From: Deinococcales bacterium
GTDB taxonomy: Bacteria; Deinococcota; Deinococci; Deinococcales; JAAFIG01
NCBI GenBank assembly: GCA_031414595.1
Contig: JANNVX010000018.1
Span: 128,001-192,000 of the forward strand
Direction of reading: 5' to 3'
DNA length: 64,000 bases
The notes beneath the pieces are model-generated. The model was not told the origin of the DNA. It did not search any database and saw only the letters and a list, made by a program, of their open reading frames with translations. The position numbers and the translations under genes were made by a program. This document shows positions 4,197 to 64,000 of this stretch, piece by piece. How positions within the stretch are numbered: position 1 is the first letter of the stretch; the number at the start of each line of letters is the position of its first letter.

Positions 4197-6488
4197 TCAT
4201 TCAAGTAAATCGGTTAATTGCCGAGGGTTGACATCAATCCGTACCCGCACACCACCTTCACGGTAGCTTCTAGCAGGTTCTAGCAGTTGGGTTAGGCGTT
4301 CTCGAGTATCAGCCCGTACAAGTAACTGATAAACAAAAAGCCCTTTGACTCGAGCAATTCCAGCCGGCGCAGGACCAAGCAGTTCTAAACTAACTGCGCC
4401 TCGGTCACGGATTAAGCCACCCAGTTTACTCGAGGCAATTTCGGCATCCCCAACCCGACGGGCAGAAACTTGAATCTGTGCCATTTGTGCAAAAGGCGGG
4501 TACAAAAAGGCTTGGCGGCTCTCGAGTTCACTCTTTGCAAAACTGCTGGAATCTTCAGAATTTTGAATTTGTTGAATAGCTTTATGTTGCCCATCAAAGG
4601 TTTGAATCAACAGTAACGGCGCTCGAGTCGGATGCCATTCTAAGAGTTGCCGCAAGAGCAAATGGAAGCGTTCACCCGCCCTAAAATCGGGACTCGAGTG
4701 CATTGTATCGGCAAAGGAAATAGCGATTAAAGCTAAGTTTGGCGGTGGCGGCAAGCCCAACACAGCCGTTGTACCAACAACAATTCCACTTTCGCCAGCG
4801 TAAATAGGAGTTAAGTCATCTTTGAATTCGCGGTCAAAACGAAACAGGTTGGTTTGCGGTAAAAAACCACGTAACTCACGGACAATCCATTCACTGCCAG
4901 GTCCTTTTGGGGACAGCACTGTCCCTTCACAATTGGGACAACGGGTTGGCGGAACGGTGCTGTAGCCACACTGATGACACTCGAGGGTTCGAGCCGCCGC
5001 ATGGAATTTAAGGGCGACATCACAATGCGGGCAGTACGGAATCCAAGCGCAGTCTTTGCAACGCAGCATCGCGCTGTAGCCACGGCGCGGCGCAATGATC
5101 ACAGCTTGACGACCTCGTTCAGCAATTTGGCGCAGCACCCGTTTTAAGTCAGTGGAAATCGGAAATGAATCCCGAGCAATTGGCATATTCGACATTGGTC
5201 CGGTCTCTGGGGCTTTTGGGGCGGCATTAAAATCCACGACATGGATTCGAGCCGTGGGTGGCGGTAAAACTACCCCGTCTAAGTCAAGGCTTTCGGTGGC
5301 GGGTACACTGCCAACAAATAAAACTCGAGCCTTGGCATGTTTGGCGCGGGTTAAAACTGCATCTGGGATAAAAACCCGAGAGCCACCATGAAGTTTCCAA
5401 GCATCGGATAATTCATCCTCGAGAATAATTAAAGCCAAATCTGGGAGTGGCGCAAACAACGCCATTGGCGTTCCAAACAAAATCGGGATTGTTCCAGTGG
5501 CGCAAAAGCGCCAAACCGCTTCGCGTTCCAGTGGACGCAAAGCCCCGTGCAGCATGGCACTTTTTGCCAGTTCGCCAAGTGCCTTGTATGCCCGCTCGAG
5601 TCGTACATGGTCTGGTGCGAGATACAGCACACAATGCCCATTTTTGACGGCTTTGAGGATTAAGGATTGTAAGACCGCGAAACGCTCACGGGGTTTTGCT
5701 CCATGTAAACGCGCAGTAGCCAATCCCTCGAGTTTTTGTGCTGCCGCCAGATGCACCGCTTTGACAATTGGTCGCTCAAAAGATTGCCCAAAATTCGGCA
5801 TGGTCAGAGGTAACGGCTCGAGTTCGCGCCTTGCCGCACCCTTCTCGAGTAACTTCGAGACCATGCTCGGGCTGACCCCAGCCTCCAGTCCCCAAGCCTT
5901 CAAGGTGTAAAAACCACCCGCTTCGCGCAGTACCTCGAGGGCTGCCGTTTGTTTATCGGTCAGGGGCAGGTCTGCGTTGGTGGCTTGAATAATTTCACGG
6001 CTTGGCAATTCTAAGCGCACATCCTCGAGTAACAAACCCTGTCCACGTAAAAAATCTAAGATACTTGGGTCAAGGGCTGTTGCATTTTGGCGCTGCTCGA
6101 GTAGTCGTGCTTGTTCTGGCAGGGTTTCTAAGTTTATTCCAGCCACCAATTGTACACGGTGACTAAAATTTGGCTCGAGACCAAAGGGCATAAAATCTTG
6201 ATAGACCAAACCATCAAAACTTAGGCTTTGTTGTGCCACAGCTAGAAGGGCAGCGCAAGCATCGGGCGTAAAAATTGGTTCAGTGTCCAGAACTGCAATC
6301 GTGTCTTTGATGCTTGTGGCACGGTCTAACGTGCCGTCTAAGACTGCTAGTACCACCCCGACCCTCGAGCCACCCTGCCACGGCACAAGCACCCGCTTAC
6401 CAAGACCAAGGTGCGGTTTGCCAATGGGTTGGAAATCATAGGCTGGAAGTGGCAATGCCACAGCCACGCGCCAACGAGGGTACTTCAT
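4197..6488 (-). CDS. priA: Primosomal protein N' (PriA), ATPase motifs degenerate
   Basis: RRGY + CxxC-CxxC-CxxC-CxxC zinc region, DFRAGER, YPPF, LGPAPA, RIDVNP. Confidence 0.9.
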   Translation of the reverse strand: MKYPRWRVAVALPLPAYDFQPIGKPHLGLGKRVLVPWQGGSRVGVVLAVLDGTLDRATSIKDTIAVLDTEPIFTPDACAALLAVAQQSLSFDGLVYQDFMPFGLEPNFSHRVQLVAGINLETLPEQARLLEQRQNATALDPSILDFLRGQGLLLEDVRLELPSREIIQATNADLPLTDKQTAALEVLREAGGFYTLKAWGLEAGVSPSMVSKLLEKGAARRELEPLPLTMPNFGQSFERPIVKAVHLAAAQKLEGLATARLHGAKPRERFAVLQSLILKAVKNGHCVLYLAPDHVRLERAYKALGELAKSAMLHGALRPLEREAVWRFCATGTIPILFGTPMALFAPLPDLALIILEDELSDAWKLHGGSRVFIPDAVLTRAKHAKARVLFVGSVPATESLDLDGVVLPPPTARIHVVDFNAAPKAPETGPMSNMPIARDSFPISTDLKRVLRQIAERGRQAVIIAPRRGYSAMLRCKDCAWIPYCPHCDVALKFHAAARTLECHQCGYSTVPPTRCPNCEGTVLSPKGPGSEWIVRELRGFLPQTNLFRFDREFKDDLTPIYAGESGIVVGTTAVLGLPPPPNLALIAISFADTMHSSPDFRAGERFHLLLRQLLEWHPTRAPLLLIQTFDGQHKAIQQIQNSEDSSSFAKSELESRQAFLYPPFAQMAQIQVSARRVGDAEIASSKLGGLIRDRGAVSLELLGPAPAGIARVKGLFVYQLLVRADTRERLTQLLEPARSYREGGVRVRIDVNPRQLTDLLE

Positions 6489-6754
6489 CTTTTTCGATAC
6501 GTGCGTTTGCTTCGACGCTCAATACCAATAATCCACATTTTATGACTTTCCACGCCAATATAAAAAATAATTCGATCTGGAGGAACTTTTAATCGCAAAT
6601 ACCCAGAATTTTGAACTGTTTCAATATCCCCAGCTTGATGGCTAACGTACATCAGAATTTTCTCGAGTAAACGTGATTGTTGTTTTTTAGTAAAGGTTTT
6701 CTCGAATAACAGTTGAACCTCATCTGAATCCCAGTCCCATCCTGTTACAATCAC
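6485..6754 (-). CDS. RelE/ParE-family toxin
   Basis: 89 aa; LRLKVPPDRIIF...IIGIERR...Y resembles the RelE RLRVGDYRIIY...HR..Y pattern. Confidence 0.6.
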   Translation of the reverse strand: MIVTGWDWDSDEVQLLFEKTFTKKQQSRLLEKILMYVSHQAGDIETVQNSGYLRLKVPPDRIIFYIGVESHKMWIIGIERRSKRTYRKR

Positions 6755-7014
6755 AATCGTTTACCTCGTTGTTCAACAACATCAATCAACGATTGCTCAT
6801 AAGATGAGGCTGCTTCACCTTTTGGAATTTGAAGCATATAATCTTGCAATTTCACCTTGGCGCTCATCTTTTCTGAGACTGGAATTTCAGGGATTTCAAT
6901 TTCAGAAATGATTTTCTCGAGCGCTTGTTTACGACTTCTTAAACCATGTATTTTACGAAAAGCATCCAAGCGAACCATAGCCTTTTTGGAAACCACTTGT
7001 TCAAGCATTGTCAT
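6751..7014 (-). CDS. Putative antitoxin
   Basis: 87 aa, RHH-like N-terminus, ATGA overlap with the toxin, -10 TAGAAT 6 nt upstream. Confidence 0.5.
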   Translation of the reverse strand: MTMLEQVVSKKAMVRLDAFRKIHGLRSRKQALEKIISEIEIPEIPVSEKMSAKVKLQDYMLQIPKGEAASSYEQSLIDVVEQRGKRL

Positions 7015-7074
7015 AACACTATTCTACTCTGTCTCAGCCGTAAAACCAAGTTTGTCTCGAGGACATACCATAAC

Positions 7075-8682
7075 TTAGGGTGTGCGAATTGCAAAGTTCT
7101 GGGTTTTTGCTTCGCCTTTGCTCAGACTTAAACTGATGTTAGGAGGGCTGGTTCTGGTCAAATGCCCAACCAACCAAGCATCGTATTGGGTTAAACGCAC
7201 ATAAACTCCAGGCTTATTAGGTAAGGCACAACCGATACCAAAACTAACTACACCAACTTGACGTAAACCTGTTTGATTTGCCACATAAAGTGGTCCACCA
7301 CTGTCACCTTGGCAAGTGTCAATAAAACCAGCCGCAAAACCAGCGCAAAGCATGTTAGTGGTAATGGATAAACCAGACAATTGAGCAGCACAGGCAGCAT
7401 TTGAAATAATTGGCACACTGGATTCTTGAAGGTCACTTGGAAATACTTGTGGGTCATTGCCGTTAAGTGCGCCCCAACCGACAATTAAACCATTGACCCC
7501 TGCGGCGGCTAAGGCTGTTTCACTAGGCAAAATAGCGCGAATGGTGTCTTTGTTGCTTGGAAGCGATAATTTAAGCAAAGCAATATCATTATCATTCCCA
7601 AGGCTGTTGTAACTGGGGTGAACAATAATTTGTGCCACACTTAAGCGAGTTAATGGATTCTCGAGTTTAGTGAAACCGATGGCGACGTTAATACTTGATG
7701 CAGAACTCACAACATTGTTTTCTACGACGCAATGAGCGGCGGTTAGAACCCATTCGGGAGCAATCAGGCTGCCACCACAAAATTGTGCATTGAATGGATT
7801 CCCCACGCTCGATTGTAAAAGCGCCACGATTGAGTTCCACTTGCCAATTGGCGCAACTGTGCCACCAACAATTTGCGTGGTTAAACGACCAGAATTCACG
7901 CCTAGACTCGAGCCGTAGCCAACTGGCATTTCGTGACGCACACGGTAAGAACCAGCCTTAAGGCGGTTAAAACTATAATTGCCATTGGCATCGCTTAGGG
8001 TTTGGGCTTCGAGAGTATCCGGTGAACCATTGTTATTATCATCTAACCAAACAGTCCAACCACTTCGGGCGGTATCTAGCCCATCTTGACTAGAATTTTT
8101 GTTCTGGTCAAAGAACAATTTTCCACTGACCAGCGCACTTTTTGTAATTGCAATCAATGCAGTTTGGCTCTTACTTGGGTTTGCAAGACTGGTGGCAGTG
8201 ATTGTGACATTGGTGCTGCTGTCTGGCGGAGTGAACAAACCAACACTGGTAATTGTTCCAGCCGTGGCACTCCAAGTCACACCCGTATTACTCGAGCCTG
8301 TCACCAATGCACTTAAAGTCACGATTTCTGCTGACTCGAGACTTGCAGGTGCGGTGAAACTAATACTCACTTCGGGGGCGGCGGTCACATTAACGGTTGC
8401 CGAGCCAGATTTTGTGGCATCTTGTTTACTGGTCGCAGTAATGGTGACACTACCAAGTGTATTTGGGGCAGTGAACAAACCACTTTGCGAAATCGTGCCA
8501 GCACTGGCTGACCATTGCACCGAAAGGTCGCCTGTACCAACAACGGCTGCATTGAATTGCTGCGTTACAAATGCTTGTACACTGACAGTTAAAGGCGCAA
8601 TACTGATGCTTTGAATACTGTTAGGGGTAGGACAAGCCGTTAAAGCACAAGCCAACAAGACTATTAAAATTTTATTCGACAT
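7075..8682 (-). CDS. Lipoprotein: Ig-like repeats + SdrD-B-like domain + trypsin-like (S1A) serine protease
   Basis: Lipobox LTAC; IVGG, TAAHC, DIALL, GDSGGP. Confidence 0.9.
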   Translation of the reverse strand: MSNKILIVLLACALTACPTPNSIQSISIAPLTVSVQAFVTQQFNAAVVGTGDLSVQWSASAGTISQSGLFTAPNTLGSVTITATSKQDATKSGSATVNVTAAPEVSISFTAPASLESAEIVTLSALVTGSSNTGVTWSATAGTITSVGLFTPPDSSTNVTITATSLANPSKSQTALIAITKSALVSGKLFFDQNKNSSQDGLDTARSGWTVWLDDNNNGSPDTLEAQTLSDANGNYSFNRLKAGSYRVRHEMPVGYGSSLGVNSGRLTTQIVGGTVAPIGKWNSIVALLQSSVGNPFNAQFCGGSLIAPEWVLTAAHCVVENNVVSSASSINVAIGFTKLENPLTRLSVAQIIVHPSYNSLGNDNDIALLKLSLPSNKDTIRAILPSETALAAAGVNGLIVGWGALNGNDPQVFPSDLQESSVPIISNAACAAQLSGLSITTNMLCAGFAAGFIDTCQGDSGGPLYVANQTGLRQVGVVSFGIGCALPNKPGVYVRLTQYDAWLVGHLTRTSPPNISLSLSKGEAKTQNFAIRTP

Positions 8683-8758
8683 AAGACAGCTTATCAAGTA
8701 AATTCAAAAATAGCCTGAAATCAAAAAAAATGCGGTTTCTAACGCAAAATACTCGAGC

Positions 8759-11700
8759 CTAATAAAATTCTTTGATTAAACTTCGCCAAGGTAATTCAGG
8801 CTCTAAAGGCATATCGTGACCAATAAAGGCTTTGGCTAATTTCTGAACATAAAAACCAGAACGTTTATCTTGCAATAAACTTATAGCAAGGCGCTTTGCA
8901 AACATCGGGTTTAGGTGTGCTAAAGGCTCGAGCAGGTTGGATACACATTCGTAGGCGTTTAGAGCAGAGACAATTTGAATACTTTCAAAAACAGTTTTTA
9001 AGTGCTGGGTGGGAATTGTTTTACCTATTTTTTGATCGATATTAACCTTAAGTACAGCAGCCCAAGCAATAAAGGCTCGAGCTTTGAAAGTGGTATTTTC
9101 AAGTAAGGCTTGGACTTTTTGGATTTGCTGTTCTTGCAAGTAGACTCGAGCCATGCTTGTAATTGTTTCTTCTTTGATTTCATTTAGGGCTAAGTCCATT
9201 GCTGTTTGGTATTGCTTTAAGGCTTTTGGCAATTCTCCAAGCTCAAAATAGACATGCCCAATTCGTAAAATGCAATGAGCAGCCCGTAGGGTATTGCCTG
9301 TGTGCTGACAAAGTGCAAGGTTATCCTGTCCTAGTTGTAAGGCTTCTTGGTATTGTCCAAGGGCGCGTAAAGTCTCTAGTTGACCGTTGCCAAGGGCTGT
9401 TAGCATTCGCTGGTCGCCCAAGTTACGGACTTCTTTGGTGCTTGTTTTGAGAATAGCCAGCGATTCTTGGTATTTACCTTGGAATTGTAAAGCTGTAGCG
9501 AGGTTATTTTGAACCGATTGTAAATTGCGTTGGTCACGAAGTTGAATTAGTAATTCCTCAGCTTCGAGCAATTCTTGTTCGGCGCGTGCGTACTCACCGT
9601 TTCGTCCTGCCAGTATTGCCGCATGAATTGGGATTAACGACATGACCCGAATATTAGCGCCGCTTCGAGCCGCTTCTAAGGCGCTTTGGGCTTCTTCAAG
9701 TTTCCCAAGGATAGCAAGCACATCACAAAGTTGTAAGTAACTTATGGATTGTTCAAATTCATCGGCGGTTTTGCTTAATTGCACGGCTTTTTCGGCAAAC
9801 TCAAGACCTTCTAAGGCTCGAGAAGTACGAGAAAAGAGCATTGCCAATTGACGTAAACGAATCAGGTTTTGTTCATTTGATAATAATTCTGGTTGTGCCA
9901 AAGCAAATTCGGATTCGGATTCTTTGAATAGCCCTAGATTGGCTTTGGCATGACCTCGTTGCAAAGCAAATTGTGCAGCTAATTCAGGTGGTAAATCTGA
10001 ATGAGGGAGTAAAGCCGATAATTCATTAAAACGATTGCACAGTACATGCAGTATTGTTAAGCCTTGAAGGGCAGAACTCAGCCTCTCAAATTGCTGGTTC
10101 TCGAGTGTCCAAGTCCAAGCAGCACGGGCATTGTGGTAAATCAAATCCACATGGCGTTTGGTCTCCAAGTAGGCTTCGAGGTCTTGAGTACGGTAACGTA
10201 TGGGCAGTGCTTGTAGCAACTCAAAGTAGTGTGTGGCATGAGCCTGACGGGTTTGCCCTAAGCGCTCAGGATTTTGTGCAGCTTGCTCGAGTACAAATTG
10301 CCGCAGTAGCGGATGTAACTCAAGTCGTGTCTCAGTTAAACGCAATAAAGAGCGGTCTGTCAGAGCAACAATCGCAGCGCGGCTTGCCCCACTGACGGCT
10401 CGTGCCGAAGCCAAAGTAAATTCGCCCACAAAAACCGCCAAGGAAACCAGAGTTTGTTGTTCTGCACCCCCAAGTAAACGCCATGAAGAATCAAAAACCG
10501 CTCGAACGCTATGATGTCGTGGATTGCGGTCTTTAACGGGTCGCTCGAGAAAATCTAAATCCAATTGAACTTCAGCAGCAATTTCTTCTAAGCTCATGTG
10601 CCGAATCCAAGAAGCTGCTAATTCTATGGCGAGTGGCGAACCTGCTAAGTGTTCGGTCAGAACCCCGATTTGCTGTTCAATTTTGGTATCTGGGTCAAAA
10701 CTGGCTTTGACCCTTATGGCACTTTGAATAAATAAAGTTTTAGCAGCTTCAAAACTCAAACCAGATAACTCGAGAATTTGTTCGCCTTGCAGTTGTAGCA
10801 CACTGCGCGAAGTCGCCAGCAGCTTAATTTTTGCGGCGGCGCTCAGCAAACGCTGCACCCAATGTCCAATCTCGGGCAGATGCTCTAAGTTATCAAGTAC
10901 CAACAAACAATGTTTATCGCGTAAATAATCAAATAAAACCGTTTCGGCTTGACTGTTTGGTGGGGTTAAACCCAGTGCCAACAAAACACTTTGGCTTGGG
11001 TCGTCGGTGCTGCTGATGTTTTCAAAAGAAACCCAATACGCACCATCCACAAAATTATTCTGCCAAGTCCAAGCCGCCTCGAGTGCCAAACGGGTTTTGC
11101 CATTGCCACCAATGCCCAGAATCGTCAGTAAACGCCAATCGGTATCTGCAAAAAAATCGTGTAGCACAGTCAGTTCGGCTTCGCGCCCGACCAGTGGCAC
11201 AGTTGGGGCTGGCAAGGGTGGGCGAATGGTTTTGACTGGGCTTGGTTTGGCTAAGTTGGCAATGATTTCTTTGGCTTCTGGGCTTGGTTCGGCTGCCAGT
11301 TCCTCGGCTAGAATTTGGCGGTAACGTTCAAACTGCTCTAAAGCCAAATGGTTTGCGCCTTGGGCGGCGTAATAGCCAATCAGACCAAGCTGGGCAATTT
11401 CGGAAGTTGGCTCGAGTTGTAAGTATTTTTTCCAAGCCAGTTCTGCGTGAGTCACATCCAAATTTGCCAGAGTTGCCAGAACTTGGGTTTGTAAACCAAG
11501 CAATTCTTGGCGATACGTCTCTGCCCAGTCCTCGTATAAATCTTCAGACATTGGCTGACCATCTATAAAATTGGCGGCTTCTAGGAGTTTGGCTGCGTCT
11601 TTATTGGCAATACCTTCTCGAGCCAATGCCATAAAATCGCTCACATCAACACTTAGTCCGCCGATTGGCTCGAGTCGCACCACCCCAGAGACCAGTTTTG

Positions 11701-55949: not shown

Positions 55950-56150
55950 ATGGTCAAAGAACGAATTGCTTACCGAGTTTGCCCAAAGTGTGCCAGAGCC
56001 GTGCCTTTGGGGAGTGGGGAAAAATTTTGCAGCAACGATGGCGAGAAATTGCTCGAGGCTTGCCCAAAGTGTAATGCCCCCATTACCAGCCCATACGCAC
56101 GATTTTGCTCGAGTTGTGGTCAAGATTTTTTTACTAAGGAGAAGCCATGA
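55950..56150 (+). CDS. Double zinc-ribbon protein
   Basis: CPKC..CSND..CPKC..CSSC; AGGAGG RBS; ATGA overlap with next gene. Confidence 0.8.
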   Translation: MVKERIAYRVCPKCARAVPLGSGEKFCSNDGEKLLEACPKCNAPITSPYARFCSSCGQDFFTKEKP

Positions 56151-59125
56151 AGTATTTATTCCCCATGATTTTGTCGGCTTTATTAGCGTGTAACCCGCCA
56201 ACGCCGCCTATAGAAAATAAAATTCCCGTAGTCGGGTTTACGGCTTTAGCCACTGTCCAAGCGGGTACAGCCCTTGGTTTCTCGAGTACCTCTACTGACC
56301 CTGACGGCGACGCTTTAACGCTCTCTTGGGATTTTGGTAATGGGGTGCGTGGCGGCGGCGCAAGTATTGCCCATGTCTACCCCAAAGCGGGTTCGTTCAC
56401 GGTCAAACTTACGGCAGCCGATGGCAAAGGCGGAGTCTCGAGTGCGGAGAAAACCGTAACTGTCACAGCCAATAGTATTGTGGCTGGGGCAGCGCTCAGT
56501 GTGGTTGGCTCAATTTTTGATGCTGTTGGCGCACCACTGGCAGGTGTGTCTGTGCAACTAGATGGTGCAACCCTAGGCTCGAGCGATACAAACGGCAAGG
56601 TCACTTTGTCTGTACCGACTGGAATTCCAATCAACTTGGTCTTTGATAAAACTGGGTTTAGCCAAGGGTTTGCCGCCCTCGAGTTCCCGAAAGGTTCTAA
56701 CGCCAGCAATGCCGATTTTACGGCAACGCTGTTGGCTCGAGCCGCTGCCCAACCGATGAACGCCAGTACAGGTGGCGCAATCACTGGCACAGACAATGCC
56801 CGTCTCGAGTTACCCGCCAATGCTTTGGTCAAACCTGATGGTACGCCCGTAACGGGAACGGTCAATGTCAGTTTGTCGCCTGTGGATATTAACGACCCTC
56901 TCGAGAAAAGCGCTTTCCCTGGCAGTTTTGAAGGCGTGCAACCCAACGGCATAAGCACCGGCATTGTTTCCTTAGGTACAACCGAATTTGCCCTCGAGCA
57001 GGGTGGGCAGCGTCTGACCTTAAAAGCAGGGGCGAGTGCCAAAGTGCGCTTGCCGATGTACGCCAACACTAACCTCGATGGCAGCCCGATTAAATTAGGC
57101 GATAGCATTCCACTTTGGAGCTTAAACGAACAAACGGGCGATTGGGTACAAGAAGGCATAGGTGTGGTGGTGGATTCGGGTCCTGGAACAAGGGCGCTCG
57201 AGGCAACCGTGACCCATTTTAGTTGGTGGAATGCGGATATTGGTTTCATCCCAAGTTTTCCAAAACCCAAGTGTATTAACGATGTTCCGGGGCAGTACGA
57301 CAGTATTTTTGAACAAGCCACATTCTGTAAATTCTTAGCCGAACTCGATAAACCAATTCCCGCTCTAAACTCGAGTTTACGTCCTCAAGCCGACCCGCCA
57401 CGCTTACCTGCTTTTGCTGCCACAACCAATTTGCCAATTGTGGGGGGTTTTGGGTTACCCGTCCCAGCCGACACAAACATTCGCTACACAGGTTGTATTG
57501 CCAATAATACTTTTTGTGGTTCGGTGGTGAAAAACTTTGTGGCTGGCTCGAGTGAAACTTTTGAAATTCGCCTTAAACGTACTGACACCGAAGATATTGG
57601 ATTGCCATTTGATGCAGTCCGCAACATCAATGCGATTAAGCGTTTTACTTTTGACAGCAGCACCAATCCAAATGGGGTCAATATCACCTTAGAGCGCAGT
57701 GCAGGCTCGAGTTTTACTGGAACAGCTTTTTTACTCGACCCACAAGGCAACGAAATCAGTAACAAAGGCATTGGTGGCACAAGTCAAATCCTAGAATCAC
57801 GATTATTTGCCAGTGGTAAACACATCCTCGAGATTCGCCCTAGTGCCGGCTCGAGCGGTGGTATTAGAATCCGAGTTGAACGCAAAAATTTTGTCGTCAC
57901 CAGCAATTGGACAACACTGACGCAAAGCGCCATTAGAATTGAGGATAATCCGAATGTGGTACTGAACAATGCTGGGCAGGGTGCAGCATTTTGGATACAA
58001 AAAGATGATTCTATTCAACCAACGCAATACGCATTAAACAGCAGCAGTTTTGATGCGACCAACAACACATGGGATGCTGTTCAACTGCTCGAGACGCAAA
58101 GCACTGATTACCCAAATGTTGCACTGGGTGTGGCTGGTAACAATGATAAAATCATGATTTGGACGCAGCGTGCCGCTACAAACACAGTGCGTTGGAGTCG
58201 CCGTATTGCCAGCAGTAACGCTTGGAGTGCTGCCACAAACCTTGCGATTGTCAGTGCCAATAAATACGCCACCAATCCACAAATTAAAATGGACTCGAGC
58301 GGCAATGCTGTGGCGCTCTGGCTCGAGTTTGGTGGTGGTAATTTTGGAAATCAAATTCGCTTGGCACGATTCACAGCCACAACTGGAATTTGGGCAGTAG
58401 AAACCATAGCGGCTGGAAATTTTCCAGATACACCTGTATTGGCACTGGACGCAGCAGGAAACGTAGCAGTGCTGTACTTCGATTTTTCTCCAAGTCTTGG
58501 CTATTACTTCAAGCGCAACCTCGCAGGTGTGTGGAGTACCGCCACCAAATTATTCACCCCGAGCGCCGCGCCAAATGGTTTTACTTCGACCAAACTCGAG
58601 TTAAGTGCCAGTGGTAATGGCATGGCAATCTGGGATGACGCTGGAACACTCCGTGCTAGGGCTTATGATTTTGGCACAGACACATGGAAACCCGTCCAGA
58701 GTTTTGCTGGTACAAACGCTAAAATCGGGCTAAACTCGAGCGGAAATGCCAATTTAGCCTACCTCGAGTTTGCCAATCCAGCCGCTCTGTTCGCCCGGAC
58801 GTACATTGCCACAACCGACACATGGAGCGCCAGCCAAACCATTTCTGACTCGAGCAATGGTGGTGTGAACTTTGCTTTGAATAACCTCAACATGGCTTTT
58901 AACCCAACAGGCGATGCGGTCATAACCTTTGTTAAAGGGCAAGAAACCTTACTGTCTTCTCGAGCCTCGAGTGCCAGTGCTTGGACAACCCCAGTACCAG
59001 ATGGTGCTTTTGAAACTCGTCGAGTTGCCTTGGACGACACTGGCAGGGCTGTGATTCTGCGAGTTGGATATAACGCCACGCTTTTCAAATACGAAGTTCA
59101 AGTTAAACGCATCAACATTCGCTAA
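56147..59125 (+). CDS. Large PKD-domain lipoprotein with carboxypeptidase-regulatory-like and repeat/propeller regions
   Basis: Lipobox LLAC; DPDGD..WDFG PKD; HFSWWNAD; repeated D..GNA...W units. Confidence 0.8.
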   Translation: MKYLFPMILSALLACNPPTPPIENKIPVVGFTALATVQAGTALGFSSTSTDPDGDALTLSWDFGNGVRGGGASIAHVYPKAGSFTVKLTAADGKGGVSSAEKTVTVTANSIVAGAALSVVGSIFDAVGAPLAGVSVQLDGATLGSSDTNGKVTLSVPTGIPINLVFDKTGFSQGFAALEFPKGSNASNADFTATLLARAAAQPMNASTGGAITGTDNARLELPANALVKPDGTPVTGTVNVSLSPVDINDPLEKSAFPGSFEGVQPNGISTGIVSLGTTEFALEQGGQRLTLKAGASAKVRLPMYANTNLDGSPIKLGDSIPLWSLNEQTGDWVQEGIGVVVDSGPGTRALEATVTHFSWWNADIGFIPSFPKPKCINDVPGQYDSIFEQATFCKFLAELDKPIPALNSSLRPQADPPRLPAFAATTNLPIVGGFGLPVPADTNIRYTGCIANNTFCGSVVKNFVAGSSETFEIRLKRTDTEDIGLPFDAVRNINAIKRFTFDSSTNPNGVNITLERSAGSSFTGTAFLLDPQGNEISNKGIGGTSQILESRLFASGKHILEIRPSAGSSGGIRIRVERKNFVVTSNWTTLTQSAIRIEDNPNVVLNNAGQGAAFWIQKDDSIQPTQYALNSSSFDATNNTWDAVQLLETQSTDYPNVALGVAGNNDKIMIWTQRAATNTVRWSRRIASSNAWSAATNLAIVSANKYATNPQIKMDSSGNAVALWLEFGGGNFGNQIRLARFTATTGIWAVETIAAGNFPDTPVLALDAAGNVAVLYFDFSPSLGYYFKRNLAGVWSTATKLFTPSAAPNGFTSTKLELSASGNGMAIWDDAGTLRARAYDFGTDTWKPVQSFAGTNAKIGLNSSGNANLAYLEFANPAALFARTYIATTDTWSASQTISDSSNGGVNFALNNLNMAFNPTGDAVITFVKGQETLLSSRASSASAWTTPVPDGAFETRRVALDDTGRAVILRVGYNATLFKYEVQVKRINIR

Positions 59126-59137
59126 AAGGAGTTTTTT

Positions 59138-60355
59138 ATGAAATTACTAGCCCCAATTATTCTGGCTGCCTTGCTGGTGGCTTGCCCCAACCCAAGCCCG
59201 ACCAACCGCGCTCCAATCGCTGCTTTTACCATTTCGAGCAACCCTAGTACAGTTGGCACAACCCTCAATTTTAATGCCAGCACCTCGAGCGATCCAGACG
59301 GCAATGTTTTAACGTATGCTTGGAATTTTGGTGATTCCAGCACAGCAATCGGCGTGACAAGCTCGCACGCATTTGCAACCGCAGGTAGTTTCACAGTTAT
59401 ACTAACCGTCTCGGATGGAAAACTCAGCACACCAATCACCCAAAATCTAACCATTAACCCTGCTCCCTTGAGCTTTGGTAAAATCACCTATACCTATCAA
59501 AATAATGTCTATCGAGTCAGCGCCCAAGCTGGCGCAACCCCAGAGAATGTCTCGGCGCTGATCACCACTGGCACACGCAAACCAGAGCGCCGCTTAAACA
59601 TCTCGCCTAATGGTACATGGCTGGTTCTCGAGACCCAAAACTTAGATGTCGGATGTGATGGCAATTACTGCCTTGCGGTTGCCCCAAGCGCCAATCCTGC
59701 CAGTGCCGCAGTGGTACGCACCCCAAATTTAGTTCAAGACTCCCAAGGTTTCCCTGCCATCTCCAGCGACGGCAACCTGATTGTTTACACCGCCAGTGGT
59801 GGCGCACATAACTTTGACCTCTGGGCAATCCGTAAGACTGCTAATACTTGGGCTGCGCCAGTGCAGATTACCCAAACCAGCACCCAAAACTACAACGACC
59901 AGCCCGCCATCTCGAGCGACGGCAGTAAGGTTTTGTTTGATTGCGGGGTTGTGGCTTTTGGCGAAGGTAACACCAGTATCTGCGAAATCGGCACAAACGG
60001 CACAGGTTTCAGGGTTGTGGTTTCCCCGAGTAACGCCCCCTCGAGTATTGCAAGTAAAGGACCGACCCATCATGCTGATTATTTGTCCGACGGAAGTATT
60101 GCCTTTGACACAGCTTGGGATGCCGATGCAGTCTGGAAAATTCTTGGCAACACCATCAGCAAAGTCTCGCAGGTCAACAACAACGTCGCTCCATGTGGAC
60201 TAAGCGGTGGCAAAGTTGCTTCGCTCTGGCTCGAGCGCAGTGGCAATACCAATGGTTATCACGAACTCATCATGACCGATAACAACGGAGCGAATCTTCA
60301 AACCATTGTCACGGGAATTGACATCGAAGACATCGGTATTGGCTGTGGAGGGTAA
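59138..60355 (+). CDS. PKD + TolB/PD40-like propeller lipoprotein
   Basis: Lipobox LVAC; SDPDG..YAWNFGD; PAISSDG repeats. Confidence 0.8.
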   Translation: MKLLAPIILAALLVACPNPSPTNRAPIAAFTISSNPSTVGTTLNFNASTSSDPDGNVLTYAWNFGDSSTAIGVTSSHAFATAGSFTVILTVSDGKLSTPITQNLTINPAPLSFGKITYTYQNNVYRVSAQAGATPENVSALITTGTRKPERRLNISPNGTWLVLETQNLDVGCDGNYCLAVAPSANPASAAVVRTPNLVQDSQGFPAISSDGNLIVYTASGGAHNFDLWAIRKTANTWAAPVQITQTSTQNYNDQPAISSDGSKVLFDCGVVAFGEGNTSICEIGTNGTGFRVVVSPSNAPSSIASKGPTHHADYLSDGSIAFDTAWDADAVWKILGNTISKVSQVNNNVAPCGLSGGKVASLWLERSGNTNGYHELIMTDNNGANLQTIVTGIDIEDIGIGCGG

Positions 60356-60735: not shown

Positions 60736-61428
60736 ATGAAAAATAAATCCCTGATAGTTGCTTTTATTCTCGGCTCGAGCTTCATCGCTTGGGCTGCCTC
60801 GAGTACGCTTAAACTCAGCATTAACGGCACAGCGTACAGCCCAGCTGTAATTGTGCAGAACGGCAAAACCTATATCCCGCTCGAGGCGCTACAAAAAGCT
60901 GGGGTCAAAGCCATTGTTTCTAAAACCGAGGTCAAGCTCGAGTTGCCGGGCTTTGTCGGTGGCGCAAACCAACGGGCATCACTCGAGGGCTGCCTTGGTG
61001 AAACGCTTTTTAATGGGGTCTGGCGCATTAAAACCACCAAGCTCGAGGTGCTTAAAACCGATAAACTCGGCTGGGGCTTAACGCTCGAGGTCAAAAATGG
61101 AAGTCCAGCCACAATCACGCCAGTGGATGCTGGTTTTGATGGGACTGGACAAGGTATTCAATTGGCTTTTGCCGATGCCAGCACGCTTAACGTCGATGCT
61201 ATGGATGTCCAGAGAGTCACTTTTGCCAGTTTGCCGCCGGGTGGTGCAGTAACGCATCAGCTTAAATTCTTTTATCCGTTTGGGACAGCCGATAGTGCTA
61301 TAAAAACCCCGACGAAGTTCCTGCTTGAGCTTAATCCAAAATCTATTGGCGACAGTACCAAAGCCAAAGGGGTGGCGTTTAGCGTACCTAATCCAAGTTT
61401 GCGGGTGCGCTTGGATTGTCAAAAGTAA
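60736..61428 (+). CDS. Hypothetical secreted protein
   Basis: Signal peptide; NGKTYIPL motif like copper-amine-oxidase N-terminal domains. Confidence 0.7.
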   Translation: MKNKSLIVAFILGSSFIAWAASSTLKLSINGTAYSPAVIVQNGKTYIPLEALQKAGVKAIVSKTEVKLELPGFVGGANQRASLEGCLGETLFNGVWRIKTTKLEVLKTDKLGWGLTLEVKNGSPATITPVDAGFDGTGQGIQLAFADASTLNVDAMDVQRVTFASLPPGGAVTHQLKFFYPFGTADSAIKTPTKFLLELNPKSIGDSTKAKGVAFSVPNPSLRVRLDCQK

Positions 61429-61694
61429 AATTGCTTGTATTCAACTGGAGACTTGGGCTTAGGTTTTGATTATTGTGGGATAAAAGAACCCTTAACCGCC
61501 CCTTTTGGAAAACTACTTCTGCTTTGGTTGAGGGCAAAATTATTGTTGCTTCCTGATTGAAATTGCAAGAGCGTAGGCAAGTTTTAGCGCAGAAATTTCA
61601 CAAGAACTATTGACTATTTTTATCACGACACGATTTGACGCACTAGCCAACGAAACTCACCTTCGAGCGGTTTTAAGCCCTCGAGAGGAGTTTT

Positions 61695-61829
61695 ATGTTC
61701 AAGCGTGTTGTACAAATTTTACTCGCCGTCGTCCTTTTAGCCGTGGTTGCTGCACCTAATGCCAGTGTCACAACCCCAACCCCAGTTTTAATTGCTGGTG
61801 ACGACCCCGGTGGTGGAACAGGCGGTTAA
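61695..61829 (+). CDS. 44-aa secreted peptide, candidate signalling pro-peptide
   Basis: GAGGAG RBS; MFKRVVQILLAVVLLAVVAAPNASVTTPTPVLIAGDDPGGGTGG. Confidence 0.75.
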   Translation: MFKRVVQILLAVVLLAVVAAPNASVTTPTPVLIAGDDPGGGTGG

Positions 61830-61838
61830 TTTTAGGCG

Positions 61839-61873
61839 GTAGCGCCAAGAGCATCAGCTTTTGGCGCTACAAT
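61839..61873 (+). promoter_or_regulatory. Hairpin after the peptide gene, overlapping the -10 of the TPR gene
   Basis: GTAGCGCCAAGA / TTTTGGCGCTAC stem; TACAAT 61868-73 lies 7 nt before ATG 61881. Confidence 0.55.
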
Positions 61874-61880
61874 ACTGACC

Positions 61881-63533
61881 ATGCGAATCAGTCCGACCAA
61901 TCAATGGAATGAATACTACATGCAATACAAAAAACTGGTTCGTCAACAACATTGGTTTGCTTTGCAGCAATCCTTTCCAGTCGTCTTGCGCTTGGCGCGT
62001 AATGTTAAACAGCATCAGGATTTCTTAAAAATGATTGAACCACTGCAAAGCATCATCTTAAATCCGTCGAATCATCTGATTTATGCTGAACTACTACTTC
62101 GCGCTCGAGCTTTTACCAAAGCCCTACATTTTCTCGAGACCCTGATGCCAAACCCAAATGCCTTATCTTTATATGCTCTTGCCTTACTGCGAAACCAGCA
62201 ACCGATAGAAGCCCTGAAACAAGCCCAAATTGCCTTACCCACAGGTATCCGTTTAGACCTTGCCTACCGAGTGATTGCCGAAGCCAGTTTTGAGATGCGT
62301 TTACCAAATTGGCAAAAAGCATTTGGCAAAGCAGTTGACCACACCAAAGGTCGTCAGTGCGGCTATGTCTGGATAGAATGGGGACGAGCTTTAGAACTTG
62401 AACTTCAAGGGGCTGCCGCTCGAGAATGCTGGGCAACAGCCCAAGATTTTTTTGAGCAAGATGCCTATTACCAAGCCCAAATCATGGCGAATATGGGTTT
62501 ATCCTGTGTTAAAGAATTAAAACTCGAGGAAGCAGAAGGTCATTACGCCCAACTCTTGAAACGCGCTTCACACCCAGAAGCCAAGAGTTTTCAGTCTCAA
62601 GCCTGGCGCGGTTTTGGTTTATCTTGGCGAGCCGCAGGAGAATATCAACGTGCGCTATTTGCTTATGAAAAAGCCTTAAAACTCTCCAAAGAACCCTTTG
62701 ATAAAATCCAAGCCCAACGTGGCATCGGTCATACCCTGCGCTTACAAGGTTATCCAAGCCAAGCTCTAACGCACCTACAAAAAGCCTTGGCAATCCAAAA
62801 GAAAAATAATCTTCCCCTGACCATTTACCCAGACTTAGCGGCAGCACGGCTTAGCAACGGCAACATCGAAGCTGCCTTAAACGACCTCGAGCAATGGCAA
62901 GGCAGGGGCGAAGACGAGGAACGCCGTCAGATTGTCTTTGCCGAAATCGCACGGCAACACCAAAATCCTAACCTTGCGCTCGAGTATGCCCAAAAAGTAC
63001 GTTGGTACAGCCTTTGGGGACGTGAAGAACTCAAATGTTTTGCAAAACTTCAAGCCTTATTGATGAGCATGAACCTGACCTTACCTGAATCACCACCAAG
63101 CAATGCAGAATTTCAGATTGTGGTCAGAGCCAGAGGGACATTGCAAATCAGTATTAACCAACGCCGCCTGAGCATTAACCCTACCAGTCGGGCGGCACAA
63201 CTCTTGGTTTTACTGCTCGAGCATCATCAGTCTCGCAGCGCCCGTGATTTACTCCTCGATTTTTATCCAAACACCACCAAGGTTGAAGCTCGAGCCAAAC
63301 AAAAACTAATTTCAAAAGCTGTGGCTGCTTTACGTGAAATGCTTGGTTGGAATGAAAGTGTGATGCAAAAAGGTGGGGTTTATAGCCTCGACCCGAACAG
63401 CATTTGGCATTACGATGTACAAGAAGCACGGGGAAAAGGCGAAGCGGTTGCGGTGTTTATGACGGGTGTAAGTGAAGATTGGGTACTCGAGCGAATACGA
63501 TCTTTTGATCATCAACCACGCGATTTGAACTGA
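61881..63533 (+). CDS. TPR protein with C-terminal SARP/OmpR-like winged helix
   Basis: Several TPRs (e.g. QAWRGFGLSWRAAGEYQRALFAYEKAL); C-terminal G.L.I...LLVLLL...FYP...LREMLG...GVYSL; no P-loop. Confidence 0.8.
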   Translation: MRISPTNQWNEYYMQYKKLVRQQHWFALQQSFPVVLRLARNVKQHQDFLKMIEPLQSIILNPSNHLIYAELLLRARAFTKALHFLETLMPNPNALSLYALALLRNQQPIEALKQAQIALPTGIRLDLAYRVIAEASFEMRLPNWQKAFGKAVDHTKGRQCGYVWIEWGRALELELQGAAARECWATAQDFFEQDAYYQAQIMANMGLSCVKELKLEEAEGHYAQLLKRASHPEAKSFQSQAWRGFGLSWRAAGEYQRALFAYEKALKLSKEPFDKIQAQRGIGHTLRLQGYPSQALTHLQKALAIQKKNNLPLTIYPDLAAARLSNGNIEAALNDLEQWQGRGEDEERRQIVFAEIARQHQNPNLALEYAQKVRWYSLWGREELKCFAKLQALLMSMNLTLPESPPSNAEFQIVVRARGTLQISINQRRLSINPTSRAAQLLVLLLEHHQSRSARDLLLDFYPNTTKVEARAKQKLISKAVAALREMLGWNESVMQKGGVYSLDPNSIWHYDVQEARGKGEAVAVFMTGVSEDWVLERIRSFDHQPRDLN

Positions 63534-63642
63534 GTTAGATGCACTCAGGTTATCAGAGTACAGATACAAATTGTAAATAAAAGCGACCATCAGGCGACAG
63601 GGGTGGAGTATTGTCGTGTTAATTCGCTATTAGGAGTAACCC

Positions 63643-64000
63643 ATGAAAGCTACTCAGAAAAAAACCATTCGTTTACAACAAGTACAAAAACTGCTCGAGG
63701 CTGCACCACGCACTTACCAAGACCTTTGTAATCGGCTCGAGATAGACCACTCACCAGCCAGTATACGGGCTTTACAACGTGATTTAACCGATCTTACCAA
63801 CCAAGGTTTTGAGATTACCTCTCAAGCAACACGCCCTGAGAAGTTCAAAATTACCAAAAGTCCACCGCCACGCATGAAACCCGACGAAGCCCTTGCTGCC
63901 CATATCGCTTTGCGTCTGCTGTACCACCACTCGAGCAACCCACCAAAAAGTTATCAGAACGCCCTCGAGAAGATTTTACTGACCATGCCACCGCAAATGC
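63643..64000 (+). CDS. HTH regulator, probably WYL-domain (YafY-like); truncated by window end
   Basis: AGGAG RBS; MKATQKKTIRL...SIRALQRDLTDL...MKPDEALAAHIALRLLYHH; the WYL domain itself is not visible. Confidence 0.65.
   Translation, partial: MKATQKKTIRLQQVQKLLEAAPRTYQDLCNRLEIDHSPASIRALQRDLTDLTNQGFEITSQATRPEKFKITKSPPPRMKPDEALAAHIALRLLYHHSSNPPKSYQNALEKILLTMPPQM

Follow-up and report, generated by a model that had tools for sequence, protein, structure and literature searches.

Peptide signalling through cytoplasmic receptors is best described from the RRNPP systems (Rap/Phr, NprR/NprX, PlcR/PapR, AimR/AimP), in which an all-helical receptor of the tetratricopeptide repeat (TPR) type is encoded beside a pro-peptide of about 40-60 amino acids (aa) whose N-terminus carries an export signal and whose active part lies at the C-terminal end, several paralogous pairs with differing peptides being found per genome. 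Surveys of these systems frame the combination of peptide signals and cytoplasmic TPR receptors as a speciality of Bacillota and their phages (PMC10075063). The DNA analysed here, a stretch of 64,000 nucleotides (nt) from a Deinococcales metagenome-assembled genome (positions 128,001 to 192,000 of contig JANNVX010000018.1, assembly GCA_031414595.1; "the window"), carries near its end a small pro-peptide gene followed by a gene for a 550-aa TPR protein, and this cassette shares all of the above traits, the active part of the peptide being placed at its C-terminus by sequence. It differs from the RRNPP systems in belonging to Deinococcota rather than to Bacillota and their phages, in a C-terminal SARP/OmpR-type winged helix instead of an N-terminal XRE-type helix-turn-helix (HTH) or a Rap-type effector domain, in a peptide gene that lies upstream and has its own terminator, and in peptide tails that share an acidic-Pro-Lys...Gly-Gly or a Cys...Cys pattern. 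We read it as a Phr-like pro-peptide plus TPR-SARP regulator cassette, specific to Deinococcota and present in multiple copies, that would drive adjacent WYL-cas or cmr operons, and we give this reading a probability of roughly 0.55; that the cassette itself is real and under selection we regard as nearly certain.

Another known system that comes close is that of the SARPs (AfsR, EmbR, DnrI, ActII-ORF4), with which the regulator has in common an AfsR-like winged helix and, at its presumed target promoter, direct repeats with an 11-bp period placed 8 bp from a -10 box, and the large members of which also carry TPRs. The order of domains is however reversed here, with the TPRs first and the winged helix last, a single helix follows the wing in place of a full BTAD, an NB-ARC/AAA ATPase is missing, the Pfam models Trans_reg_C and BTAD remain undetected in the receptor (neither reaches E 0.1), and both phylum and targets differ. 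The parts of the cassette, in window positions, are as follows.

61624..61657, + strand: conserved block CACGACACGATTTGACGCACTAGCCAACGAAACT upstream of the peptide gene, a putative promoter/operator of that gene
61686..61690, + strand: Shine-Dalgarno sequence AGGAG, 4 nt 5' of the peptide ATG
61695..61829, + strand: gene of the 44-aa pro-peptide, starting MFKR, recognised by tail motif, codon-position bias and conservation
61839..61870, + strand: GC-rich terminator-like hairpin with a 14-bp stem, 9 nt after the peptide stop, from folding
61868..61873, + strand: TACAAT -10 box, 7 nt before the receptor ATG
61881..63533, + strand: gene of the 550-aa receptor/regulator, no Shine-Dalgarno sequence, from Pfam TPR matches, models and PADLOC matches
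61893-63068, + strand: TPR superhelix, residues 5-396, predicted by AlphaFold
63114-63509, + strand: SARP/OmpR-type winged helix and one further helix, residues 412-543, predicted by AlphaFold

An earlier note on this DNA, made from the letters alone, had described a 44-aa open reading frame (ORF) with a ribosome-binding site, an export-like N-terminus, a T/P linker and a polar tail, then a hairpin and a leaderless 550-aa gene whose product combines TPRs and a C-terminal winged helix without an ATPase. All of these are present: Pfam finds TPR families only in the protein, and the winged helix appears in the AlphaFold model. The placement of the system outside Firmicutes likewise agrees with its source in a Deinococcales genome.

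The product of the small ORF, MFKRVVQILLAVVLLAVVAAPNASVTTPTPVLIAGDDPGGGTGG, consists of a basic N-terminus, a hydrophobic core (h-region), a T/P linker and the tail ...LIAGDDPGGGTGG, with a junction at LIA(G)|DD that would set free (G)DDPGGGTGG. Each of two orthologues has 36 nucleotide differences from it, with 9/2/25 and 9/3/24 of them at codon positions 1/2/3, a pattern which indicates that the ORF is under coding selection. Selection is strongest at the end of the peptide: among five orthologues the last 12 residues have a single change (T/S) as against 10-11 changes elsewhere, and in the paralogue pair whose receptors are 58% identical the tails agree at 13/13 positions and 12 of the first 30 residues differ, so that the short tail is, by these comparisons, the best-conserved part of the pro-peptide. 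The conserved block at 61624..61657 is near-identical across the five orthologous loci, the flanking upstream DNA being divergent, and GGAG-type sites also lie 5' of the peptide ORFs in most paralogues.

The pairing of the two genes extends well beyond the window. The genome from which it comes (4.49 Mb, 120 contigs; "own genome") holds five further regulator copies with 22-36% mutual identity (58% in one pair), and each of the six copies has, directly upstream and on the same strand, a small ORF with export-like features, judged from the peptide sequences themselves (43-59 aa at the five paralogues). When 41 genomes, the own one and 40 relatives, were searched with a profile, the family turned up in all 18/18 members of the same taxonomic family (3-13 matches per genome) and in two other taxonomic families of the order. 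Sixty-six frames matched the profile; five without an N-terminus were set aside and 61 were tested automatically for an ORF of 25-110 aa ending within 450 nt upstream and reaching a mean hydrophobicity of 1.8 or more over 15 residues. The test is passed by 52/61 family genes as compared with 235/1,088 of the own-genome ORFs that are 400 aa or longer (a background of 22%). One of the passes, L053 (a locus handle of ours, as are the similar ones below), is a false match over a tRNA-like stretch; the nine failures include four genes with less than 200 nt upstream and two, L027 and L070, at which a peptide is present by eye. A clear upstream peptide precedes 53/57 family genes with at least 200 nt upstream (51 automatic, two by eye), and among the other four, L036 and L053 keep the tail only, L049 has none and L071 is unclear (by eye). 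Successive filters for position and tail motif reduce the 235 background passes to 137 and then to 4, all of them family members, and a tail pattern, composed after the peptides had been seen, occurs in 5/2,406 hydrophobic small ORFs of the own genome, all five adjoining family genes; by the same pattern no orphan peptide gene was found there away from the family genes.

In other genera of the phylum, represented by the 20 loci with the strongest matches, 16/20 have an upstream peptide (14 automatic, two by eye), and the conserved tail spans three taxonomic families. The earlier note had proposed looking for signal-peptide ORFs upstream of homologues, and the idea survived this check at 5/5 paralogues, 53/57 relatives and 16/20 more distant loci. 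The pairing is, by these counts, not due to chance, and a one-to-one, same-strand, adjacent arrangement kept across paralogues that are 22-36% identical is the hallmark of cognate signal-receptor pairs. On a quick maximum-likelihood (ML) tree of 45 locus-derived receptors, which left out eight metagenome proteins, the tail classes need 4 changes as against 11.6 in shuffles, a difference that linked genes would show anyway.

When the peptides are aligned at the junction, two hydrophobic residues and a small one are followed by an acidic start, and two classes of tail can be told apart, a Gly-rich one (...A|DDPKxGxGG; e.g., A|DDPKTGSGGG, AG|DDPGGGTGG, A|EDGGKVNTGG) and one with two cysteines (...V|DDPKPCxxC; e.g., V|DDPKPCASC, A|ENGPHCC, G|DCPGGMVC). 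The paralogues of the own genome end in ...IIAEDEPKIGTGG, ...AHAEDGGKVNTGG (twice), ...VLAENGPHCC and ...LVGDCPGGMVC. The residue before the acidic start, counted by eye in 48 peptides, is A in 22, G in 16, V in 8, S in 1 and F in 1, and the A, G or S of 39/48 makes the junction look like a cleavage site. A, G or S at -1 agrees with the rule for signal peptidase I, and AHA|EDGGKVNTGG is a textbook site. Other classes of small peptide were considered and set aside: there is no lipobox ahead of the Cys of a would-be lipoprotein, the GG that might suggest a double-glycine leader sits at the extreme C-terminus, and no enzymes of a cluster for ribosomally synthesized and post-translationally modified peptides lie nearby.

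Between the peptide and receptor genes of the window is a 51-nt stretch with a folding energy of -28.1 kcal/mol, and the 3' arm of its hairpin overlaps the -10 box of the receptor. Folding of 21 loci gave a strong hairpin, unrelated in sequence, 5-16 nt past the peptide stop in most of them, several with a T-run, and a TAnnnT box stands 5-8 nt before the receptor start in many family members (by eye). This succession of hairpin and TAnnnT box suggests that the peptide gene is a transcription unit of its own and the receptor mRNA leaderless, as it would be in the window, where TACAAT sits 7 nt before an ATG that has no Shine-Dalgarno sequence. Leaderless transcripts are usual in this phylum, and in Deinococcus deserti they make up about 47-60% of mRNAs (PMC4007540).

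As a separate observation, many peptide genes are preceded, about 30-90 nt before the start, by a conserved GC-rich 5'-leader hairpin (GGCGCGG...CCGCGCC; L003, L004, L014, L025, L045, L059, L061) that encloses CCGCCAAGA or its reverse complement TCTTGGCGG; the terminator stem of the window likewise contains CGCCAAGA. Rfam holds no known RNA family for the hairpins or 5' leaders and matched CRISPR repeats only, under the gathering score.

The receptor shows only TPR families in Pfam (TPR_1/2/12), without an ATPase, and its N-terminus is not hydrophobic (by eye). The AlphaFold model, built on an alignment of 53 relatives, has a mean predicted local distance difference test (pLDDT) score of 93.2 and a predicted TM-score (pTM) of 0.90, and is all-helical over residues 5-396, with a beta-alpha-beta winged helix at 412-543. 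Compared with 48,161 chains by VIA-align, the model scores highest with Cut9 (Z 19.8), MalT domain III (18.8) and LGN (18.7), and the RRNPP receptors reach 18.5 (phi105 Rap with peptide, 8rte), 18.5 (RapI), 17.9 (NprR-NprX), 17.1 (RapH), 15.7 (AimR) and 13.2 (PlcR). Foldseek on the whole model and a profile search of the PDB returned generic TPR proteins only, and the absence of RRNPP receptors from these lists is not evidence of a difference. A predicted complex of TPR residues 1-400 and pro-peptide residues 15-44 scored 0.02 and is counted neither way. The earlier note had called the system an analogous quorum-sensing module with reversed domain order; this is supported in part, the pairing and the C-terminal winged helix being in keeping with it, and the RRNPP receptors, which are among the best matches, resemble the model in fold no more closely than generic TPR proteins do. 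Common descent with RRNPP is not established, because the generic proteins score equally.

The profile of the C-terminal domain gave weak PDB matches to CadC (E 1.3e-3), CarR, AfsR and EmbR, and the last 149 residues folded alone (pLDDT 93.5) matched best, by Foldseek, AfsR in a transcription-activation complex (E 1.2e-5, TM 0.66, 166 columns), followed by EmbR and by PhoB-type effector domains. From the profile and fold matches together it follows that a SARP/OmpR winged helix with one extra helix stands after the TPRs. Downstream of the receptor the window contains the following further features.

63525..63553, + strand: sigma-70-like -35/-10 pair, TTGAAC, 17 nt, GGTTAT (by eye), a possible constitutive promoter of the downstream operon
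63583..63614, + strand: SARP-type box GCGACCA, 4 nt, GCGACAG, 8 nt, TATTGT (-10), 29 nt before the WYL ATG
63643..64000, + strand: start of the gene of a 328-aa HTH-WYL-WCX regulator (Pfam WCX 6.2e-12; PADLOC WYL and Cas3c models)

The box, GCGACCA-TCAG-GCGACAG-GGGTGGAG-TATTGT, lies between the receptor stop and the WYL start and consists of two heptamers with an 11-bp period, the second of them 8 bp from the -10. In SARP promoters, direct repeats are spaced by 11 or 22 bp, and 8 bp separate the 3' repeat from the -10 (PMC10936776; see PMC10972967). Written as KCGAY-N6-KCGAY-N10-TANNNT, the pattern has one match in the window, with 0.01 expected, and one match each in 32/143 loci, equal to 19 distinct places once overlaps are removed, all within about 110 nt past the stop of a family gene (12/20 WYL-linked loci in the near set, 5/18 in the far set and two loci cut before the next gene). 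Variants (TCGAC/TTGAC, GCGAC/TCGTC and TGGACGA twice) were seen by eye at three more loci. At several loci only 6-7 nt separate the -10 from the WYL start, a spacing that suggests a leaderless WYL gene as well. We consider it probable that the regulator acts on this downstream box. The III-B-linked paralogues have other repeats, ATGCTCT-4-ATGCTCT, at about 11 nt from a -10, an observation made by eye to which we attach low weight. A CGAC-type repeat upstream of the peptide gene (61624-61646) is uncertain, and a search for k-mers shared by the promoters of the peptide gene and of the downstream operon, which might have pointed to autoinduction, gave nothing convincing.

The TTGAAC of the sigma-70-like pair forms the last two receptor codons (Leu-Asn), so that this pair overlaps the end of the receptor gene. 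A Leu-Asn end written TTGAAY or CTGAAT, followed by the stop, 16-17 nt and ...CTCAGATAAT, recurs in cas-linked relatives (by eye, no statistics), including L003, L004, L007, L008, L014, L019, L046 and L048, and the last two codons of the receptor seem to double as the -35 hexamer of a downstream promoter.

The genes that follow include CRISPR-associated ones in about a third of the neighbourhoods examined. After the window copy (L074), the WYL gene, which extends 629 nt past the window end, is succeeded outside the window by cas3-cas5-cas8c/csd1-cas7-cas4-cas1-cas2 (type I-C). Two paralogues of the own genome have cmr2...cmr6/csm6 (type III-B) directly downstream, and the other three head a LuxR-type gene, a lipoprotein-like gene with an RCC1 gene, and unknown genes (51/85 ORFs of these neighbourhoods were scanned with Pfam). 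Linkage to cas genes is seen at 3/6 loci in the own genome and in 14/40 downstream stretches of relatives, which were up to 8 kb long, nine of them under 3 kb at contig ends, with 175/186 ORFs scanned and the 11 farthest dropped. Among these 14, the types are I-C in 8, I-E in 3, Cas6/Cas3-type in 2 and Cas3 only in 1, and WYL-WCX is the next gene in 19 of the 40 stretches. In the wider sample (32/47 ORFs scanned), WYL is next in 18/20 and Cas3 is visible within 3.5 kb in 3. In the ML tree, receptors with WYL linkage fall into two supported clades, both of the Gly class, and those with III-B linkage into a third clade.

Some observations on these neighbourhoods stand by themselves. At L008/L081, a receptor 73% identical to that of the window, with the tail GDDPGGGSGG, heads a type I-E operon, and at L001/L074 the downstream operon is of type I-C; an orthologue this close before another type means that the cassette moves between cas types, and suggests that the regulatory module is exchanged among CRISPR-Cas types. 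At L025:329-869 and L061:3374-3552 a CRISPR array (CRISPR-DR9, under the Rfam gathering score) immediately precedes the peptide gene, the cassette being therefore embedded between array and cas genes; no array follows cas2 of the window locus in the 560 nt up to the contig end. In Meiothermus-like genera HTH-WYL-WCX and Cas3 (HD and helicase) form a single ORF of about 1,078 aa (L100:4690-7923(-), L141:2545-5784(+), L142:113-3349(-)), and the PADLOC Cas3c model (1,009 positions) matches the stand-alone WYL protein of the window over its first 316 positions. Paralogues away from cas genes precede DUF11 giants (L082, L083), WXG100-like genes (L078/L089), a LuxR/GerE regulator (L079/L084) and ParA-ParB-integrase plasmid-partition genes (L096), so the family extends beyond CRISPR control.

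A profile built on the last 149 residues, from 42 of the 45 locus-derived sequences (three near-duplicates dropped), matched 222 of 301 genomes of the phylum at E <= 1e-8, a tally that includes one unpublished genome (G265, weak match) on which no other result depends. Strong matches (E < 1e-20; frames of about 530-600 aa) are limited to the taxonomic family f1 (9/9), to f3 (chiefly genus g7) and to g13, g18 and g19 of f5, with one weak match in the 31 genomes of g9, weak matches only in f2 and 0/14 in f4. Among 1.84 billion cluster representatives, 196 proteins reach E <= 1e-10, 92 of them <= 1e-30, and almost all are 520-600 aa long with the domain at the C-terminal end, i.e., a small and uniform family; a scan with the single protein returned only four near-identical fragments. 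As these searches indicate, the family is confined to Deinococcota, and genomes of cultured, harmless Deinococcus- and Meiothermus-like bacteria carry the cassette.

The receptor is not new to the databases. PADLOC-DB models PDLC01171 ("TPR repeats containing protein") and PDLC01092 ("C3a198, TPR protein") match it at E 6.8e-107 (residues 31-540) and 4.2e-68 (residues 39-538), and a III-B-linked paralogue at 6.4e-84 and 1.2e-102, so that by profile similarity it is already catalogued as the CRISPR accessory C3a198/"TPR protein". C3a198 is one table row of type III accessory genes (Mrub_1490, 3 members, III-B; Shah et al. 2018, PMC6546367), and "C3a198" occurs in the searchable literature in that paper alone. 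Family and linkage to cas cassettes are the same; the entry consists of a name only, and here linkage to I-C and I-E through the WYL gene, and to non-cas genes, is added. In the literature text available we found nothing on an upstream peptide, a winged helix or a target box of this family, and searches joining RRNPP or peptide pheromones with Deinococcus, RRNPP with lineages outside Firmicutes, CRISPR with quorum, peptide or TPR terms, or WYL with Deinococcus gave nothing on this system. A preprint on CRISPR-linked genes mentions TPRs only in STAND NTPases, the text of the WYL/CARF paper PMC4012209 has no TPR, tetratricopeptide or Deinococcus, and the RRNPP_detector paper makes no mention of Deinococcota.

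Setting out from the genes, their conservation, the exclusive pairing, the folds, the promoter box and the cas linkage, we infer a course of events that runs through export, cleavage, re-import and binding. The small gene, transcribed separately, would encode a pro-peptide with a Sec-type signal sequence and a short polar tail, which would be exported and cleaved after the small residue preceding the acidic start of the tail; in the window copy, a cut at LIA(G)|DDPGGGTGG would yield a peptide of 9-10 residues. The released peptide would build up outside with cell density, be taken back in through an Opp-type permease and bind the groove of the TPR superhelix, the N-terminal sensor. The own genome encodes at least 13 OppA/DppA-type binding proteins (SBP_bac_5), an import capacity that is permissive only. 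Binding would switch the occupancy by the regulator of the two 11-bp-spaced direct repeats that overlap the -35 region downstream, and the controlled promoter would drive the HTH-WYL-WCX regulator and the type I-C CRISPR-Cas operon, activation being the expected sign by analogy with SARPs; paralogous cassettes with other peptides stand before two cmr operons of type III-B and before further genes. That the peptide is the ligand of its regulator is about an even bet. We hold with slightly less assurance the wider picture of a convergent or very distant RRNPP counterpart, in which each CRISPR-Cas locus (I-C, I-E, III-B) would have a private channel of 7-13-residue peptides and a TPR-SARP activator, with Cys-tailed paralogues serving other gene sets.

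Several results weigh against this reading. A recognisable peptide is absent at L049, L071, L127, L129, L131 and L134, the exact box is not universal (12/20 near, 5/18 far), and cas genes adjoin only about a third of the cassettes, with many contigs ending early. Tails of the Cys class are often preceded by Val (8/48), a poor site for signal peptidase, and in several peptides the junction lies 12-25 residues beyond the hydrophobic core and a second protease would therefore be needed. The "DDPK" core common to paralogues is more conserved than private signals would predict, and the predicted TPR fold, tied between RRNPP receptors and generic TPR proteins, is compatible with the reading and not diagnostic of it.

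A rival explanation makes the peptide an output, a secreted or membrane-anchored product (antimicrobial, surface-active or a signal for another receptor), with the TPR protein as its mere neighbour or its regulator and sensing something else, for instance a protein partner. TPR domains do bind proteins more often than free peptides, and the tie in fold scores counts in favour of this explanation; the paired cysteines of one tail class could form a disulphide ring, as in secreted bioactive peptides, and SARP-type regulators classically control secreted secondary metabolites (PMC10972967). We nevertheless consider it unlikely, as no conserved modification enzyme, dedicated transporter or immunity gene was found by Pfam in 6 own, 40 and 20 further contexts, the one-to-one adjacent same-strand pairing is kept across paralogues 22-36% identical, and the own genome has yielded no orphan peptide genes elsewhere. 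An ORF that is merely a chance frame in the promoter region of a TPR regulator, the latter alone being real, could be argued from the looseness of the automatic test, which 235/1,088 long ORFs pass; the third-position substitution bias, the strong Shine-Dalgarno sequence, the 53/57 and 16/20 relatives with a peptide and a tail motif found nowhere else in the genome speak otherwise, and comparative sequence data have already refuted it.

More improbable than an output, though not to the degree of a chance frame, is a cis-acting leader or arrest peptide, where pausing of the ribosome on the tail would mask the 5' arm of the hairpin and allow read-through into the receptor, and where the role of the peptide would end at the ribosome or translocon rather than as a ligand. 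Acidic, Pro and Gly runs are known stalling sequences, and the secretion-monitor leaders SecM and MifM also have an N-terminal export signal. Conservation does peak in the last 10-13 codons, and the hairpin, 5-16 nt past the stop in most loci, is within reach of a terminating ribosome. The receptor, however, has its own -10 and a leaderless start directly past the hairpin, so that read-through is not needed; many of the hairpins have T-runs and resemble ordinary terminators, the tails of the Cys class (PCASC, PHCC) are not Pro/Gly-rich, a generic arrest motif would not need different tails among the paralogues of one genome, and the TPR sensor would be left without a ligand.

Should the reading of a peptide-sensing cassette be true, a second, independent lineage would show the RRNPP design to be more general, with the same logic joined to another DNA-binding module, in reverse order and in another phylum, and dozens of natural, apparently orthogonal peptide-receptor-promoter triplets would be at hand for synthetic biology. 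The control of CRISPR-Cas expression is poorly known beyond a few model species. An activator that senses peptides, sits in the locus and precedes a WYL regulator would add a new layer of such control, would give a function to the catalogued, uncharacterised accessory gene C3a198, and could tune adaptive immunity locus by locus to cell density or the presence of kin. In Pseudomonas, CRISPR-Cas is under quorum-sensing control by acyl-homoserine lactones. The same holds for Serratia (PMC5179492), and the idea is shared, in that dense populations, which run a high risk of infection, express their cas genes more strongly; there, the regulators are global, of LuxR type and encoded elsewhere, whereas here a peptide-receptor pair would sit inside each CRISPR-Cas locus. 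WYL regulators of defence and DNA-damage genes are themselves a described class (BrxR, CapW, PafBC, DriD; Makarova et al. 2014, PMC4012209), to which the HTH-WYL-WCX gene between receptor and cas3 belongs as a neighbour of the cassette and not as the finding itself.

Some minor observations concern the surroundings. Upstream of one paralogue (L075, contig C72) lie a subtilase gene (Peptidase_S8; 4746-6419(-)) and a large SARP-like gene of the classical kind (BTAD, AAA_16 and TPR, 912 aa; 6451-9189(-)); processing of pro-peptides is a conceivable role of the subtilase. In the window the cassette is preceded by genes for three secreted-looking proteins at 56147-59125, 59138-60355 and 60736-61428, the first two with PKD domains (992 aa; 405 aa, the latter also with a PD40 repeat) and the third, of 230 aa, with no family match in Pfam. 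Several palindromes are nearly absent from the whole genome (GGGCCC 0, CGATCG 3, CGCGCG 3, GGCGCC 3 and GACGTC 4, with about 800-970 expected). CTCGAG, in contrast, is 24-fold more frequent than base composition predicts (23,235 sites as compared with 972, or about one in every 193 bp, coding sequence included), resembles a highly iterated palindrome and has many sites in the window at 61300-64000.

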